From Eledone cirrhosa (Eukaryota), in assembly GCA_964016885.1 (NCBI GenBank), contig OZ024740.1, positions 173,166,001 to 173,230,000 of the forward strand: 64,000 nucleotides of DNA, in the 5' to 3' direction. A model generated the notes under the pieces. The model searched no databases. It was given only the letters and a program-made list of their open reading frames with translations, and was not told the DNA's origin. The stretch's first letter is position 1; every line of letters starts with the position of its first letter. Below are positions 10,646-64,000 of this stretch, one piece after another. Made by a program: the position numbers and the translations under genes.

Positions 10646-35159
<24,514 letters not shown>

Positions 35160-48711: not shown

Positions 48712-50364
48712 CTAGCAGTAAAGCCCGGCGTTGCTCGGGGTCGCTCAGTAGCTGTGTTAAAGTTACAATGTTAAGTTTCTTTTTTGGCTTAAAAACTGTA
48801 GTGTCTACTGTGCAGACTTGCATGTGGTGTTTTTGATTAATATTCCCTCAACCAACAATATGCCTTATGAAGTTAAGAAAACATAACGATAACCCGAATG
48901 TTATAACAAAAGAGGAAATATTTGCTTGTTTTACGTAGTCTTTAAATAGACTTGTTTTCAAGTAAAAATATTGTTTTAAAAGGCTTTTAAATGGAAATGA
49001 AGCAAAACGGAAGCTTAGTGTTCGAACTGATGAATTTTGCAGGTCAAAATTTTGCTGGCTCGACAACTGTTCGTGTATTGTGTTAATGTCATTTTAAACG
49101 CTGAGAAAGCCAGCGTAATTTTTTTTATTTTTGCACGCAGAAAATGTAAACAGAACGTAAGACGCTCAATGTAAACAGAACAAAGGGAAATAACTCGTCA
49201 CTTACGCTCAAAAATCGATACATTAGATTCGATTTCGTCACATAGGGTGGGTCAATTTGAAATATTTTTTTCCGATGTCTTCGCTAGGGCTCAATGTACA
49301 AGTATAGCAATTTCGGTGCAATTCCGTCAGAGATTCTAAGAGGAGATGTGTGCCAAAACTTGATAGACAGACAGACAACCACAGCTTTATATATATAGAT
49401 AAGAACAAAGGGAAATAACTCGTCACTTACACTCAAAAATCGATACATTAGATTCGATTTCGTCACATAGGGTGGGTCAATTTGAAATATTTTTTTTCCG
49501 ATGTCTTCGCTAGGGCTCAATATACAAGTATAGCAATTTCGGTGCAATTCCGTCAGAGATTCTAAGAGGAGATGTGTGCCAAAAATCGATAGACAGACAG
49601 ACAACCACAGCTTTATATATATAGAGGACATAATCAAAAACAAGAACTTATTTGAAAATTTATTTGACCGATGGTTCTGCCGGACCTTCATCTATAAGTG
49701 TAGCAATTTCACCGAAATTTGAACGTACGGTTTAAGAGGAGATGTGTGCCGAAGGTTTTAGTAGACAGACAGACAACCTCAGTTTTATATATATAGATAA
49801 GAACAAAGGGAAATAACTCGTCACTTACGCTCAAAAATCGATACATTAGATTCGATTTCGTCACATAGGGTGGGTCAATTTGAAATATTTTTTTTCCGAT
49901 GTCTTCGCTAGGGCTCAATGTACAAGTATAGCAATTTCGGTGCAATTCCGTCAGAGATTCTAAGAGGAGATGTGTGCCAAAAATCGATAGACAGACAGAC
50001 AACCACAGCTTTATATATATAGATGACATAATTAAAAACAAGAACTTATTTGAAAATTTATTTGACCGATGGTTCCGCCGGACCTTCATCTATAAGTGTA
50101 GCAATTTCACCGAAATTTGAACGTACGGTTTAGGAGATGTGAGCCGAAGGTTTTAGTAGACAGACAGACAACCTCAGTTTTATATATATAGATGACATAA
50201 TCAAAAACAAGAACTTATTTGAAAATTTATTTGACCGATGGTTCCACCGGACCTTCATCTATAAGTGTAGCAATTTCACCGAAATTTGAACGTACGGTTT
50301 AAGAGGAGATGTGAGCCGAAGGTTTTAGTAGACAGACAGACAACCTCAGTTTTATATATATAGA
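48712..50364 (-). mobile_element. Non-autonomous Helitron with six tandem 5' termini
   Basis: A|TCTATATATATAAAACTGAGG start, CCCGAGCAACGCCGGG hairpin plus CTAG|T end, no TSD; internal about 220-bp and 170-bp units in order A A B A B B. Confidence 0.88.
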
Positions 50365-50400
50365 TTGACATATGTTTCTGTAAATTCAGAATTTATCCAA

Positions 50401-56173: not shown

Positions 56174-57172
56174 CACACACACACACACACACATGCATAC
56201 ACATATATATATATATTTATACATATACTTACGGTAAATGGGGTTGCGTATGCAACTCACCAATCAGTAAATAATTGTTTCTACATTTGGCACAAGGCCA
56301 ACAATTACCCAGCACATGATGCAATTTGATTCAAGCACTCAATGTCATGTCTTTTTTTTTAATTCCAAAGTTGTTTGCATATAGTATATGTTTGTCTTGA
56401 CACAAACCTACCCCCAACAAAATGTACCAAGACTAAACTAACCAAAAATACGCCTCACAAAATACAATTTCACAGTTAGATAAAAACAATATCAGAAAAA
56501 CCGTTAGTGCAAGAGATCCTTCAACGGGTATCTTAATCCACACAGTGTCAGAGACATGACACAATATATATTTTTTCTTATACAAACCTCCCCACCATCT
56601 AAATACAACAACCCTAAACAAGTCAAAAGCACACCACACAAAATACAATTACCTATAAAATTAAAATTAAAATATATCCACTATACATGTACTGGGAGAA
56701 CGAATTTCATCAGACTACAATTACCTTCATATCTAACATTTGTCGAGTTGTGATTGTGAATTGTGGTTACAATTTGCTTACAAACCAAACATTTAAGAGT
56801 TCAAGGCATTTAATTACTGGCAATTCTTTCTTCCCACGGTGATATACCACAGATAGCAAATCATTTTATTTAACGATTTGCCATTAGTGAACATAGACTG
56901 TGGGTGTCATCAGAGTTTAATAAAAATACTAATACAAGTCACTGGGGGAAAACGAACAGATAATATATACATATATCACTCATCAAAGTATCAAGATAAA
57001 AAAATTACAATTACAAATATAGTTAAAAAAAAACATCGTAGTCAAAAAAATATAGTGTCAGTTGTGTTAAAGGTTGTGTTTTCTAGAATGAATTGGAATT
57101 TATATTATTTTAAATTTGCGCTCTGGGCAGACTGCTGGTAGTTTGTATAGTTTTATATATAATATATATATA

Positions 57173-57552
57173 TATCAAAATGAAAATCCGAAGGCAAAGT
57201 AAAATTCAAATCATTTAATCACGACACATGTTTCAATAAGAGATAGATCGATTGTGAAACCATGATCGATTATCACTGATCTCATCAGGTGAAAATGAAA
57301 TGTCTTCAAATTCTTGATATGAGGGAGAAAAATAACGATGTTCTCTCACAGAATTCATTCCCTCATATGAATTCTGTGAGAGAACATCGTTATTTTTCTC
57401 CCTCATATCAAAAATTTGAAGACATTTCATTTTCACCTGATGAGATCAGTGATAATCGATCATGGCTTCACAATCGATCTATCTCTTATTGAAACATGTG
57501 TCGTGATTAAATGATTGGAATTTTACCTTGCTTTCGGATTTTCATTTTGATA
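57173..57552. repeat. Near-perfect palindrome, 186-bp arms, 8-nt spacer
   Basis: Arms 57173-57358 and 57367-57552; 5 mismatches counted by eye; explains the mirrored ORFs 57233-57436(-) and 57289-57492(+). Confidence 0.97.
57434..57505 (+). ncRNA. Type I hammerhead ribozyme motif (mirror copy 57220-57291 on minus strand)
   Basis: CAC-CTGATGA-(extended stem II GATCAGTGATAATCGAT / ATCGATCTATCTCTTATT)-GAAA-C-ATGT-GTC-GTG; predicted cleavage after 57502. Confidence 0.72.
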
Positions 57553-57736
57553 CTTCTACTCCGTTTTACATCATCTAGCTGTTCCCTTGAATGGAATTGG
57601 AGATATACAAAAGCGTGGAGAACTTAATATTGCTAACATAAAGTTATTGGACCATTTTACACATTTAATATATATATAAGTTGAAAAAAATGAAAACGAA
57701 ATTTCATTTCTCACTCTTAGTATGGCACTTACTTAA

Positions 57737-57793
57737 ATGTAAGTATGTATGTATACGTACATACATATATGTATACAGACGTACAGTAGCATG

Positions 57794-57859
<66 letters not shown>

Positions 57860-58340
57860 CATACAGGTACACATACATATATGCACGCATCAGTTTAGCG
57901 GACGCTTATTATAACGCCGCTTTGTTCGTTTGTAAACAAACTGAACAGCCTGAATTTATGCCATACGGTGTTAAGGCAACCACGTCACCTTTTTGTTCAA
58001 CACTGACACAGGAACGATGTACTAGTTACAAGCTTGTTAGCTATCATCAGCACCGTATACCCATCTGCCAGATAGTTGAACGTTAATTTTCATAAGGAAA
58101 GTATATACTTTCAGACGTTCAACCATCTGGCAGGAAGGTATACGATGCTGACGATAGCTAATAAGCTTGAAACTAGTACATCGTTCCTGTGTCAGTGTTG
58201 AACAAAAAGGTGACGTGGTTGCCTTAACACCGTATGGCATAAATTCAGGCTGTTCGGTTTGTTTACAAACGAACAAAGCGGCGTTATAATAAGCGTCCGC
58301 TAAACTGATGCGTGCATATATGTATGTGTACCTGTATGTA

Positions 58341-58392
<52 letters not shown>

Positions 58393-58444
58393 CATGCTAC
58401 TGTACGTCTGTATACATATATGTATGTACGTATACATACATACT

Positions 58445-58449
<5 letters not shown>
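57737..58449. repeat. Near-perfect inverted repeat, about 340-bp arms including (TA)n, 31-nt spacer
   Basis: Arms 57737-58083 and 58115-58449; spacer holds its own palindrome GAAAGTATATACTTTC. Confidence 0.96.
58143..58183 (+). ncRNA. Minimal type I hammerhead ribozyme motif (mirror copy 58015-58055 on minus strand has GAAA>GTAA)
   Basis: CGATG-CTGACGA-TAGCTAATAAGCTT-GAAA-CTA-GTA-CATCG; palindromic stem III ACTAGT; predicted cleavage after 58178. Confidence 0.75.
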
Positions 58450-58501
<52 letters not shown>

Positions 58502-60859
58502 TATATATATATGTAAGTATGCACACGTACACACATACACATATACATATGTACGTATGGGTTATATCGAACATTAATAATAATGTTCGATTCGTTTGTA
58601 AACAAACGACCCGATTTGAAGTTGTGCCATGTCGGTGTGTACGTGTGCATACTTATATTTATGTATCAGCTGTGCCAGGACGAGAAATAAAATTTTAATT
58701 TTATTATTAATATTCGGCAAGGCCAGCCGTAACTCGCTCGTTATGAAGAGATAGAGCGCGGGATGAGTACAAACATACCAAAGCTATTTGATAAGTATAC
58801 GTGTGTATGTGTTTAAATGTTTCCTTTCTTTCTTTTTTTTTTTTGTTGGTGTCACAAATAATTGTTTCTACGTTAGGCACAAGGCCAGCAATTACCCAAT
58901 GCATTACTGGTACTTTATGTTATCGACCCCGTAAGGATGAAAGGCAAAGTCAACCTCGGCGGGATTTGAACTCAGATCGTAAAGGGACGTAACTATGCTG
59001 GAAAGCATGGCGTCCGACCCTCTACTGATACTGCCAATCTGGTGTGACAAATAATTGTTTCTACTTTAGGCACAAGGCCAGCAATTACCCAGTGCATTAC
59101 TGGTACTTTATTTTATCGACCCCGTAAGGATGAAAGGCAAAGTCAACCTCGGCGGGATTTGAACTCAGATCGTAAAGGGACGTAACTATACTGGAAAGCA
59201 TGGCGTCCGATCCTCTACCGATCCTGCCAATCCACCAACTGGTGTGACAAATAATAATCAATAAATTGATATATGATCCAGTAAGGTTTTCTTATTTATG
59301 CTATTGAGAAATACAATATCTGTGTAATTGTGTCAATAAATATTTGTTCCAAATATAAACGTTGCTACTAAAATTTCAACAGCTGTACACTTAAATCCTA
59401 CAATAACATTTCAGGAACAAGTCATTCAACCTGCTAGAAATAACAACCAAATCCCTCTCAAATCACACCCTACTATCTTATATATATATGGGGTCGGGAA
59501 CACGCAGCTTCGATGCTGCATGTAACTCTATTGCTGACCTTCCAACCTCTAAAAACCCGAATGGGGAGCACCATGAAAAAAAGTGCCTTAAAACGGGGAG
59601 ATTTTACGTAATGAAATCTATACCCATTTTCACAAGAGAATATATCTTTCACCCACCCCAAATTGGGTGGGAGATCTCCCCGTTCGACAGGGAGAGTTGA
59701 CCTATCTTGATATGACTCTTGAACGTGCTGAAATTTACTGTTTTTATTTATTTGTATTAAAATAAAAGCCACGACTTAAAACTTGGATATTGAAGCCAAA
59801 TATTACATTGAGTAAAAAGAAAAACGATAGCTAAATTCACGTTGTCGTATATTATTTTGTTTATAATAAATTATACGGCTCCGATAATCCCAATTTTTCT
59901 TTTTTTTTATAAGGTAAAAATGGCTCTTGAGATAGAAAAATGTTCCCACTTCCTGTTATGTAAGAACAGGACACACTAATTAATGTAGTCCTATATATTT
60001 TTTATAAGATGGCCTCTGCTCGAATGCCGACTCGATTAGTGTTGAATTATGAATAAACAACAACTTTTCGAGGGAGCCTCTTTATGGTTGCTTGTCCTCC
60101 TAGAAATAGAGACCAAATCCACCCTTCAACCTCAAATAATACGCTATCAGCTTAAGACTTGAAGAACACATTGTTACGACTGGAATGCCTTTGATTGCAG
60201 TTTTGCGCAGTCATGTTGTAAACAACAGTATAGTTTCAGCTAGACGGATATGATTCATTTGAGAGGTGTTTCCTTACATAGCTTTTACGTTCAACTCCTA
60301 TCTGGTAATATAGTTTAGAGGTCGATGAGATCCGTCGATCAAAATTCATCTAAATATACTATATGAAGAAGACCTTATGAGTAACTCTACGGCTCAATAG
60401 GCAATGGATCTTAATGCTATAAGTACCATGGCCAACAATTGTTGAAGCTAGTTGGGTTAGTAGCTAAGCATTCTACTCAGTGTTACATACAATAGCTAAG
60501 TAGGAGAATTCACACCCGACTGTACACAACTTGTAGGGTTTTAGTATACAACCAAAGTGAACAACCAAACAATTAGCCAAATATCCGTGTCCCACCACTG
60601 GCATTGTTCTGTGTTCAAGGTCAAGCATCTATCAACGCACAGGCGTTAATAGAAATGTATTATGAACAGTAGGTTAGGAACATTGCTGTACACAATGGGA
60701 ATACTGTTTTATTAACGAGTTATTTCATTGATCGGGGGCGGTGGAATAGGGGACAGGGGGTAGACATGCCCCCCCCCCCCCATTCAATAATTATATTTTT
60801 ATCCCCAAACTACCAAAACATATCAATTTGTATATGCGTTACAATTTATGTACATGTTA

Positions 60860-61985
60860 TATAGAGATAGATGGAAGAGATAGATATAGATATAGAAAGA
60901 GGGAGGGTTTGGTGGTAATTAATATAGAGAGCAAGGTTGGGAGAGAGTGTTGCATATTAGATATTTTTTGTTGTTAATTGATATGTTGTTAATTGATGTG
61001 GAAGAGAGTTCCGTGTAGTAGATATAGAGAGGGGGATTGGAAAAGAGTTCCGTGTAGTAGATATAGCGAGAGGGAGAGTTTGGTGATAATTGATATGGAG
61101 AGGGGAATTGGAAGAGAGTTCCGTGTAGTAGATATAGAGAGGGGGAGAGTTTGGTGTTAATGAATAGAGTGAGAGGATAGATAGAGATAGATATTGAATG
61201 ATATAGAAAGGGGAGTAGTTTGGTAGGAGAGGGAATGAAAGAGAGTGTTGTATGGTAGATATAGAGAGGGGGATAGTTTGGTGATAATTGATATAGAGAG
61301 AGGGGGTTGGGAGAGAGTTCCGTGTAGTAGATATAGAGAGGGGGAGAGTTTGGTGTTAATTGATATAGAAGAGTATTGGAAGAGAGTTCTTTGTAGTAGA
61401 TAGAGAGAGGGGGAGTTTGGTGCTAATGGATATAGAGAGGGGGGTTGTAAGAGTGTTCCGTGTAGTAGATATAGAGAGGGGGAGAATTTAGTGTTAATTT
61501 ATATAGAGAAGGGGTTTGGGAGAGAGTATTGCATGGTTGATGTAGAGAGAGGGAGAATTTGGTGGTAGGATTGATAGAGATAGGTACTGTTAGATATAGA
61601 GAGGGGGAGAGTTTGGTGGTAATTGATATAGAGAGGGGGATTGGGAGAGAGAGTGTCGTGAGGTAGATATAGATAGAGAGGGGTAGATCTCAATGTTTGT
61701 AGATATAATTAAAGGGTTGGGAGAGATAAATATTGCTAAATATATAGAGGAGGACTGGGTGAGGCGTTGTCGTATAAGATATAGAGGGGGTACTTTGTGA
61801 TGGATAGAGAGAGAAATATTACGACAGAGTGTGATAGAGATGGTGATGGGGAAAGTTTGGAGATGATTAATATAAAGAGGGAGATTGGGAGTGTGATTGG
61901 TATGTTAGATATAGAGAGGGGCAGAGTTCAGGGGTGATTGATATAGAGAAGGGGAGAGTTTGGTTGTAGTAGATACATAGAGATG
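60860..61985. repeat. Purine-rich minisatellite, alternating about 35-40-bp subunits
   Basis: Repeating GGAAGAGAGTTCCGTGTAGTAGATATAGAGAGGGGGAGAGTTTGGTG.TAATTGATATAGAG. Confidence 0.9.
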
Positions 61986-62182
61986 AGGAGTCCCAAAAGT
62001 CAATACCGAAGTAGAGTTTGAATATTCATTTATTATGGCTAAGTGATGAGCCTTGTTACTCTGGAGTCTCACCTGGATACTGGATACATCAGACAAGACT
62101 GGTGTTCCTGTGAGTGCGCAGGTGAAACTTTAGAGTAACAAATCTCACGAATAGCCATAAGAAATGAATATATATAAATATA

Positions 62183-62976
62183 AAATATAAATATTTACAC
62201 ATACACCAATTAAACAGTTACAGGTATATATGTGTTTTTTGCAACTTTTCACGTTGCGGCTCAATTATCAAATAATTCTCTGGACATGCTTTACTCTAGT
62301 ATTCCGCTCTGATTAATTTATTAATTCTCCATTGATCCACAACGTGAAAAGTTTCAAAAACACATAAATACCTGTAACTGTTTAATTGGTGTAAATATTT
62401 ATATTTAATAATCTCCCATAAGGTTGAGATAAAAATCTGGGCGATATTGGGCTGCGCTTTCTAGCAACCAACCCAATCGCCGTAAGCAACCAATCACACC
62501 CTTCCTGACTTGACCACTGCCACGTCACAGTTCTCAACCATTTTGAATTCGTGTTTGGCGGGGGTCACTTCGGAAAATAATATATCTAGCGAGTTTACCC
62601 CCTGAAGAGCTCTAAACTCGAGTATGAACCTTAAATAAGGTATCTCAAAAGAGAGCGAAACCCATGGGTCGGGATTTAGTGATTTAATCCTGGTATGTAT
62701 ATAAGCATTTCTAACATTAATTTTTACCTAATTATGTATGGTTGACCGTGTATTTAATTAATTTCCACATGCTGTCGAAACGTTGGGTAGATGCTCTATA
62801 GCAGTTGCACGCGAAGACGCCGCGATGGTGTATCTATTTACTGTTTCTTCATAGATGCCTTTAATTCTTATAGCCTGGTCTAATTGATTTTTTGTGTAGT
62901 TAATTGTGCTGATTAGGAGTAGAGATGATGTATATATATTATCAAATAATTCTCTGGACATGCTTTACTCTAGTAT
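62183..62976 (+). mobile_element. Non-coding Penelope-like/retrozyme element: 5' inverted segment plus 674-bp monomer with 39-bp terminal redundancy and a central HHR
   Basis: Inverted arms 62183-62265 / 62331-62406; direct repeat ATTATCAAATAATTCTCTGGACATGCTTTACTCTAGTAT at 62264-62302 and 62938-62976; TA-rich flanks. Confidence 0.7.
62599..62673 (+). ncRNA. Canonical type I hammerhead ribozyme
   Basis: CCC-CTGAAGA-GCTCT...AGAGC-GAAA-CCCATGG-GTC-GGG; all core nucleotides intact; predicted cleavage after C62670. Confidence 0.9.
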
Positions 62977-63341
62977 ATATAAATATATATATATTTCCTC
63001 GCTAACATTCGCACGGCCAAGATGTGTCTTTGCCTTCTCGTCAATATTCGCACGTTTTTATGTTCAAAATGAATCATTGACTTGATTTTTCTCATTTTTT
63101 CCTCTCTTTACGTTGCCTCACCATTCGTATTTATTTACCTGTCTCTCTTTTTCCACCCAACTCTTTTTATCCCAATAACTTAATTTAGTTATTGTATTGC
63201 CCTAGCCGGAGGTATATGGTCTGTAATGCGAAGAAATACCTATGATGGCTAGTAGACCACTGATGATGGATAGTCCTGGCTTCTATTTCTAATTCTTTAT
63301 TATATATATCATATTTGCGACAACACAGCTCGCCATTTTTC

Positions 63342-63409
<68 letters not shown>

Positions 63410-64000
63410 GAGGAAATAGGAAGAAATTGGGTATAATACCAGTTTATTACCAATATATTAACCCCTTAAGAAAGGCTACAGTGCCCAATTTTTTAAAATT
63501 ATATATATGTATACATACAGTGGCCGTGGAACTGGGACCCCCCCCCCCCCCCCCGCCGTAATAATAATATTTTTCTCTCTAAACTACCAAAACACACATC
63601 TATTTGGATATGTGCTACAATATATACACATGTTATCATTATCGCATATCAAAGCTTTCTGACCATTTTAGAATGCAAAGAGCTAACCTAATCACTACAA
63701 CGAAACCAAATTGATTAAGCTATAAAAATTAAAGAAAGTTATTTGATATATAGTTTTGCCCGGCTAGAGATACATGTTATATATATTGTTGATCCCACGT
63801 TCGTGATTTAATGAAGGTGTAGTTATTGGATAGCTCCGATGAAGTTTGTAATCTCTAAACCAGGATGTTATTTAATTAAGCCTATATCAGCCCTGATAGA
63901 GCTGACCTATAACCGAGTACATTTCAGCTAATAGTCTTCCTAGTACTGGCGCAATGCATTATCGAATGTCTAAACATTTCGAGCCTCCAATCTATAGGCA

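Follow-up and report, generated by a model that had tools for sequence, protein, structure and literature searches.

The window analysed here, a stretch of 64,000 nucleotides, contains a non-coding repeat with a hammerhead ribozyme (HHR) motif. The repeat ends in a copy of its own beginning, and a segment of it is attached in inverted orientation at its 5' side. The locus raises the question of how this structure was formed, in how many events, by which enzymes and from what kind of RNA. An earlier note described it as a retrozyme-like copy slightly longer than one unit, of the kind that reverse transcription of a circular or tandem RNA would leave.

Boundaries of the element

The exact 39-bp direct repeat reported in the earlier note is present at 62264-62302 and 62938-62976, with a spacing of 674 bp. 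In 300 dinucleotide shuffles of 62000-63300 the longest exact repeat was 14 bp. The first copy is a short, pLTR-like partial tandem on the forward strand. The unit that begins with it (62264-62937, forward strand) is 674 bp long, non-coding and has a GC content of 37%. No second copy of this unit was found within the 64-kb window.

The element is inserted in a TA-run at the right end of a neighbouring repeat (62022-62171) and is flanked by a 14-bp TSD. The left copy, TATATATAAATATA, lies in this run at 62169-62182, and the same 14-mer is found at 62974-62987, both on the forward strand. This A/T-only word has two sites in the window, 62169 and 62974, when both strands are searched; the probability that two random A/T-only 14-mers from the window, pure repeats excluded, match each other is P=0.0013. 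The left TSD abuts the start of the inverted arm and the right TSD abuts the end of the second 39-bp copy. The TSD encloses the arm, the unit and the second repeat, and the element is therefore one 791-bp insertion, 62183-62973, made in a single event. Since the last three bases of the second copy, TAT, overlap the TSD, the 3' end of the element is at 62973-62976 and the terminal redundancy is 36-39 bp. The start at 62183 proposed in the earlier note is retained; its end at 62976 becomes 62973, its redundancy of 39 bp becomes 36-39 bp, and the TSD had been missed.

The repeat family in sequencing runs

Four runs from one organism and one study were aligned to 62000-63330 at 80% likeness. Three are contig sets of unrecorded kind, two of which come from one sample, and the fourth is a RAD DNA run; the four share 13-28% of words. 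Matching records occur in all four (4437, 4155, 126 and 4052, counts that take in two neighbouring families), and the 674-bp unit is covered in each of them; its family is multi-copy. Thousands of contigs and reads match the stretch, mostly at less than 95% likeness. No listed piece spans 62000-63330, so the locus itself is not seen in these runs. Rows listed for the alignments are the best 24 of 973 loose ends, 40 of 284 substitutions and 15 of 17 joints.

In the HHR bins coverage drops to roughly one tenth of that in adjacent bins, which suggests that many copies of the family are diverged or without the HHR. Upstream of 62390 the likeness of the main RAD subfamily is below 80%. The loose end seen at 62347 was considered as a terminus of the family and was rejected, since inspection by eye aligned it as part of a diverged subfamily. 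Read ends at 62549, 62730 and 62885 coincide with AATT-type words and are likely to be library cut sites. Pattern scans gave 0 matches in metagenome contigs and 0 in viral contigs. The family may already be present in the supplement lists of published work or in Repbase.

Both copies of the 39-bp repeat are covered by reads of the family, with a summed depth of 6410 in run X1 and 2893 in run X2 for the bin 62270-62314, and of 23102 in X1 for the bin 62945-62989. The 39 bp are therefore element sequence and not a TSD. A very short pLTR is probably a better reading of them than a classical PLE tail, which they match in size but which does not agree with the position of the inverted end. The earlier note had named two readings that would overturn its own, a DNA MITE and a 39-bp repeat that is simply a TSD, and an inverted repeat and a long direct repeat do exist at the locus. 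No terminal inverted repeats were found at the ends of the element, which are identical at 12/30 positions in AT-rich sequence, so it is not a MITE. The 39-bp TSD is refuted by the coverage in family reads and by the separate 14-bp TSD that encloses everything, and we consider either reading very improbable.

Coding capacity and promoter-like motifs

The earlier note found no coding capacity in the element, and we agree. The longest stop-to-stop frame that overlaps it encodes 77 aa, 0/6 overlapping frames matched Pfam, and these frames contain no RT or GIY-YIG remnant. A GIY-YIG domain was found in 0/179 frames scanned in the window, none of which is an autonomous PLE ORF, and RT matches in the window are confined to one APE-type LINE. 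The element is without an ORF for a telomerase-like RT and GIY-YIG endonuclease, and is not an autonomous PLE.

Alternatively, the 674-bp "unit" might be what is left of an autonomous PLE that had lost its ORF in this copy or in a few copies, in which case it was never mobile as such. Solo pLTRs and internally deleted PLEs are common in the available text of PMC3846280, and no joint between the end and the start of the unit occurs among the best 15 of 17 joints, reads being clipped, and rows omitted, at 62968-63003. Against this, contigs from other copies in X4 are colinear from 62313 to 62888 (62313-62470, 62441-62529, 62505-62873 and 62739-62888), and an insertion is called at 62296 with a depth of 3169 in X1. 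The short arrangement therefore looks like a trait of the family. This, together with the lack of an RT or GIY-YIG remnant, makes a deleted PLE unlikely.

Just 3' of the HHR motif, pattern matching finds a splice-donor-like CTGGTATGT at 62690 and an acceptor-like TTTCTTCATAG ending at 62855, followed by ATG (62690-62858). Introns in the 5'-UTR occur in PLEs. A candidate internal Pol II promoter was picked out by eye on the forward strand at 62446-62562, with CACGTCA at 62521 and TTTGGCGGG at 62554. What we take to be CCAAT-like boxes are located at 62446-62450 (reverse), 62473 and 62490. Internal promoters are present in PLE pLTRs according to the available text of PMC8557442. A sigma-70 promoter scan, which is irrelevant for animal DNA, scored below background and was set aside.

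The hammerhead ribozyme motif

The type I HHR motif is located at 62597-62675 on the forward strand. Its core is canonical and consists of CUGAAGA (62602-62608) and GAAA (62657-62660), and the GUC cut is predicted after 62670 (62670/62671). Helix II comprises 5 bp and a long extension, and helix III (62660-62669) is palindromic with a 2-nt loop. A descriptor that required the core, helix II, a palindromic helix III and a 3-bp helix I gave 2 matches in the window, against a mean of 0.01 and a maximum of 1 in 100 shuffled windows. Rfam has no match to this HHR at gathering level, and below it only a weak match to Hammerhead_HH9 (18.6 bits, E 0.93).

The earlier note called the ribozyme perfect, which is true of the core only and not of helix I. 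In this copy helix I has 3 bp, then a C-A mismatch (62598/62674), then 1 bp. Among the rows listed, family reads have T at 62598 in 28/28 reads of X5 and in all depth of X1, X2 and X4. Since this T pairs with A62674, helix I of the family has 5 bp and that of the present copy is weakened.

Folded alone, the HHR forms helix II with a probability of 0.58, helix I with 0.0 and helix III with at most 0.04. Two copies are predicted to pair through the palindrome, with a duplex energy of -17.8 kcal/mol and a cofold energy of -49.6 vs 2 x -18.4 kcal/mol. A small palindromic helix III is given as a feature of PLE HHRs in the available text of PMC4209133, and the predicted fold fits the dimer-dependent metazoan HHRs described there. 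The earlier note had predicted a 674-nt cleaved, possibly circular RNA. Such an RNA is not supported for the locus itself, whose only HHR has damage in helix I and, with its palindromic helix III, is predicted to require a partner copy. One HHR cuts once, so no unit-length RNA would be released here, and a 674-nt monomer would need a tandem locus elsewhere as its source. Its lone HHR, weakened in helix I, would cleave no more than once, and the present copy is likely to be a dead end.

The inverted arm and its junctions

The inverted 5' copy of about 80 bp noted earlier is clearly recovered by alignment. The segment 62179-62265 aligns to the reverse of 62331-62410 with 75/80 identical columns and two indels of 1 nt and 6 nt (E 6e-26). 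Within the element the arm spans 62183-62265 on the reverse strand and is the reverse complement of unit positions 62331-62406. Over its first 18 nt it matches the reverse complement of 62389-62406 without a difference, and the AT at 62264-62265 is shared with the direct copy to which it is joined. The arms differ at 4/76 positions and the copies of the 39-bp repeat are identical. At the divergence of the arms, identity over 36-39 bp has a probability of 0.12-0.14, so a single age for arms and repeats stays compatible with the data. Among the rows listed, reads favour the left arm at 62336, 62354 and 62367 and the right arm at 62257, a split in line with decay of both arms once they had been inserted.

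The outer end of the arm lies at a likely second priming site, 62400-62407 (forward strand), where the unit has its only complement to the final 8 nt of the TSD. Whether taken as 7 nt or as 8 nt, the complement to the end of the TSD has a single match in the 674-nt unit, at 62400. The arm starts at this site, at 62406, or at 62399 if a 7-nt duplication is discounted; the 7-mer AAATATA is doubled at the outer junction. The chance that a random start falls within 7 nt of 62400-62407 is about 2% (15/674, an estimate for one locus). At the right end 3 nt are common to the element and the TSD, with 2 further nt in some family contigs (the insertion behind 62296), and 2 nt are shared at the inner junction. 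In unit coordinates the outer end of the arm at 62406 is 104-107 nt from the end of the direct copy. In the canonical picture of PLE insertions both outer ends lie at the pLTR end, 0-40 nt apart, with an extension of 30-40 bp (PMC8557442, available text); the distance here exceeds this.

An arm that starts at an 8-nt site complementary to the TSD is as twin priming would predict. The L1 products in the available text of PMC2837659 likewise have a TSD around an inverted and a direct fragment, and the outer junction of their inverted fragment shows microhomology. The present element differs from them in having no poly(A) and, in unit coordinates, an inverted piece that repeats a segment of the direct one. 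With a linear RNA of about 1.95 units as template, the pieces would fit classical twin priming with an internal deletion (PMC2837659). Identical DNA would result if the first cDNA folded back and then annealed to the target, and self-priming, which is akin to this route, is argued in part of PMC3846280.

The same junctions would be expected of a SINE-like retrozyme mobilised by the APE-RT of a LINE through ordinary twin priming, without a PLE. The 8-nt complementarity of target and template and the 14-bp TSD are hallmarks of LINE twin priming (PMC2837659, available text), and a LINE remnant is present in the window. There is no poly(A) or simple-repeat tail between the TSDs, however, and features of PLEs (PMC8557442 and PMC4209133, available texts) are seen in the partial tandem, in the palindromic helix III of the HHR and in the head-to-head HHR pairs nearby. 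We rate a LINE origin as slightly less credible than a deleted PLE.

Mode of insertion and template

On balance we favour a single 791-bp insertion of a non-coding, HHR-bearing 674-bp repeat family, likely by PLE enzymes and probably from an uncleaved tandem RNA. In the available text of Craig et al. 2021 (PMC8557442), PLE insertions comprise a partial tandem, an adjacent inverted 5'-truncated copy and an extension of 30-40 bp; HHRs in the pLTR, a bias for microsatellites and non-autonomous forms are also reported. TSDs of 8-10 bp and action in trans are given in part of Arkhipova et al. 2013 (PMC3846280), and the curation guidance in PMC8969392 includes the same signature. The present element resembles PLE insertions in its type I HHR with a palindromic helix III, its partial tandem, its head-to-head inverted and truncated 5' copy, its TA-rich target with a 14-bp, A/T-only TSD and a redundancy of 36-39 bp, the size of a tail (PMC8557442, PMC3846280, PMC11167929 and PMC4209133, in the parts available). 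It differs in having no RT/GIY-YIG ORF and in an arm that starts 104-107 nt off, at a site complementary to the target. The combination of inversion, short extension and HHR is thus not unusual but a described PLE signature (PMC8557442, PMC3846280, PMC8969392), and the element fits a non-autonomous PLE derivative, a non-LTR retrozyme.

The TSD, the TA-rich target, the partial tandem, the inverted arm, the HHR motif, the lack of an ORF and the multi-copy family are seen in the sequence or the reads. The insertion itself may have proceeded as follows. A PLE endonuclease would cut both strands of the TA-run with a stagger of 14 nt. The bottom-strand end would prime reverse transcription at unit positions 62299-62302 through a 3-nt match, and first-strand synthesis would span about 710 nt, through the HHR site, to 62264. 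The top-strand end would pair with 62400-62407 (8 nt) and give rise to the 76-nt inverted arm with a 7-nt slip. The two products would then be joined via 2 nt of microhomology.

The direct piece starts 36-39 nt before its endpoint in the unit and crosses the HHR cut site intact. Given the intact site and the overshoot, a once-cleaved linear monomer could not have served as the template, and the earlier note's proposal of a more-than-unit template is borne out to this extent. The direct piece extends beyond the unit across an intact HHR site, and a segment of it is present again in the inverted piece, so the template would be a circle, two RNA molecules or one uncleaved RNA about 1.95 units long. 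On the evidence of the DNA, a tandem template and a circular one look the same. Support for an uncleaved RNA comes from purified PLE protein, which cuts and extends both strands at AT-rich DNA, takes mostly unprocessed RNA as template and does not depend on HHR cleavage (Frangieh et al. 2024, PMC11167929, available text). In the same text the Anolis PLE initiates internally and primes without homology to the target, whereas microhomology is found at both ends here, which counts against our preferred explanation. So do the distance of 104-107 nt at the outer end of the arm, the absence of an autonomous PLE among the 179 window frames, the lack of an end-to-start joint among the best 15 of 17 joints, and the abundance of invertebrate retrozymes, those of mussel included, as circles (Cervera 2020, PMC7229834, available text).

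A rival reading keeps the element and the enzymes but has a different template, a circular RNA of 674 nt that arose from a tandem source locus through cleavage at two HHRs and ligation, and that was copied once round plus 36-39 nt. The overshoot past unit length is merely 36-39 nt, helix I has its 5 bp intact in family reads and two HHR copies are predicted to pair via the palindrome. Expression as circles is described for invertebrate retrozymes, and PMC7229834 and PMC4209133 propose such a route, in the parts available. On the other side, 674 nt is larger than the 170-400 nt of the circles reported in the available text of PMC7229834, and purified PLE protein took mostly unprocessed RNA (PMC11167929). 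The circularised unit has a predicted fold of -160.7 kcal/mol with 61% of positions paired and z -2.5 vs 40 shuffles, yet 6/15 control windows of similar GC fold better, so the predicted circular fold is unremarkable. We consider a circular template possible but rather doubtful. More speculatively still, such an HHR circle may have been copied by the PLE RT over one round and a further 36-39 nt, with the second target strand priming on that circle through 8-nt pairing. If true, the junctions would directly document twin priming as the way in which animal retrozyme circles are mobilised by PLE enzymes, and the 5' inversion of PLEs would start where target and RNA chance to pair and not at a fixed second site.

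Among the titles listed by a literature search on twin priming and Penelope, none is about PLE inversions, which is weak evidence of absence. As an ORF-less HHR unit with a full PLE-type insertion signature and both junctions readable, the element provides a useful test case. Complementarity of target and template at inverted arms, taken across the family, would discriminate between twin priming, fixed-site priming and fold-back in PLE integration.

Relationship to known retrozymes

Non-LTR retrozymes are defined, and PLEs named as their likely helpers, in the available text of Cervera and de la Pena 2020 (PMC7229834). Part of Li et al. 2026 (10.64898/2026.07.22.740005) proposes animal retrozymes as non-autonomous PLE derivatives linked to pLTRs, with units of 51-972 bp. 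In these sources mobilisation by PLEs has so far been argued from shared HHRs, co-occurrence and the phylogeny of pLTRs. The element resembles the metazoan non-LTR retrozymes described there in being non-coding, with a GC content below 50%, one type I HHR per unit, a TSD of more than 4 bp and a high copy number. Solo monomers have been described, and 674 bp is within the range of 51-972 bp. It differs in being larger than the experimental circles of 170-400 nt, in the long extension of helix II and in the 5' inversion, and is known here from DNA alone.

One HHR copy is present at the locus and two consecutive units are not. With a single HHR the element is not "active" by the two-HHR rule of Li et al. 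2026, in the available text of which 8/9 retrozyme dimers tested did not cleave. Plant LTR retrozymes are also non-coding HHR elements, of about 600-800 nt, but have a type III HHR in each of two LTRs and a 4-bp TSD, whereas the element has one type I HHR and a 14-bp TSD (10.64898/2026.07.22.740005 and PMC7229834, in part). Judged by features of the DNA, the element is best placed in a family of the non-LTR retrozyme type, as a solo copy a little longer than one unit. Such elements are known and common, and there is nothing surprising in this copy alone.

Neighbouring sequence

Three further head-to-head pairs, with an HHR motif in each arm, are located within 5 kb of the element and belong to different families. 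Since all three have it, the inverted-pair architecture is routine in this genome. The arms of the first pair (57173-57358 and 57367-57552) are identical at 181/186 positions, with HHR motifs at 57437 (forward) and 57288 (reverse). A 13-bp, TA-rich TSD candidate occurs at 57160 and 57666, and the one-sided extension or offset of this neighbour (57173-57665) is 113 nt. From its sequence, 57160-57678 would be a second PLE-type family.

The second pair (57734-58452) is identical at 328/338 positions, with minimal HHR motifs at 58148 (forward) and 58050 (reverse, GAAA box altered) and a (TA)n tract in both arms. The third pair (62022-62171) is decayed, with 44/53 positions identical and degenerate HHR cores. 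It is of high copy number in the reads, and loose read ends of its family among the rows listed have an intact CTGATGA box. A TSD was sought for the second and third pairs and none was resolved. Immediately to the right of the element is another high-copy repeat (63035-63300), with CTGATGA at 63260, in which no complete HHR was found.

Direct repeats of about 92 bp at 60769-60860 and 63543-63636, 80-83% alike and each preceded by a C-run, lie 2774 bp apart and enclose a minisatellite and the HHR cluster. The minisatellite (60881-61990) is purine-rich, with a period of about 71 bp and a strong GC skew. Two tandem 193-bp copies at 58847-59232 are 95% alike and SINE-like; we presume that they resemble cephalopod SINEs. 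The LINE remnant (18093-20761) contains APE endonuclease and RT domains, interrupted by one frameshift and one stop. Exons encoding ankyrin repeats and a SAM domain are present on the forward strand at 11133-11510 and 24946-26253, probably from one host gene, which we take to be ANKS3-like. The window as a whole is AT-rich, animal-type DNA with a GC content of about 31-45% per 2 kb and many microsatellites, and its repeats look cephalopod-like to us. Nested recent tandem duplications are found at 49177-50372, with periods of 226, 398 and 169 bp and 96-97% identity.
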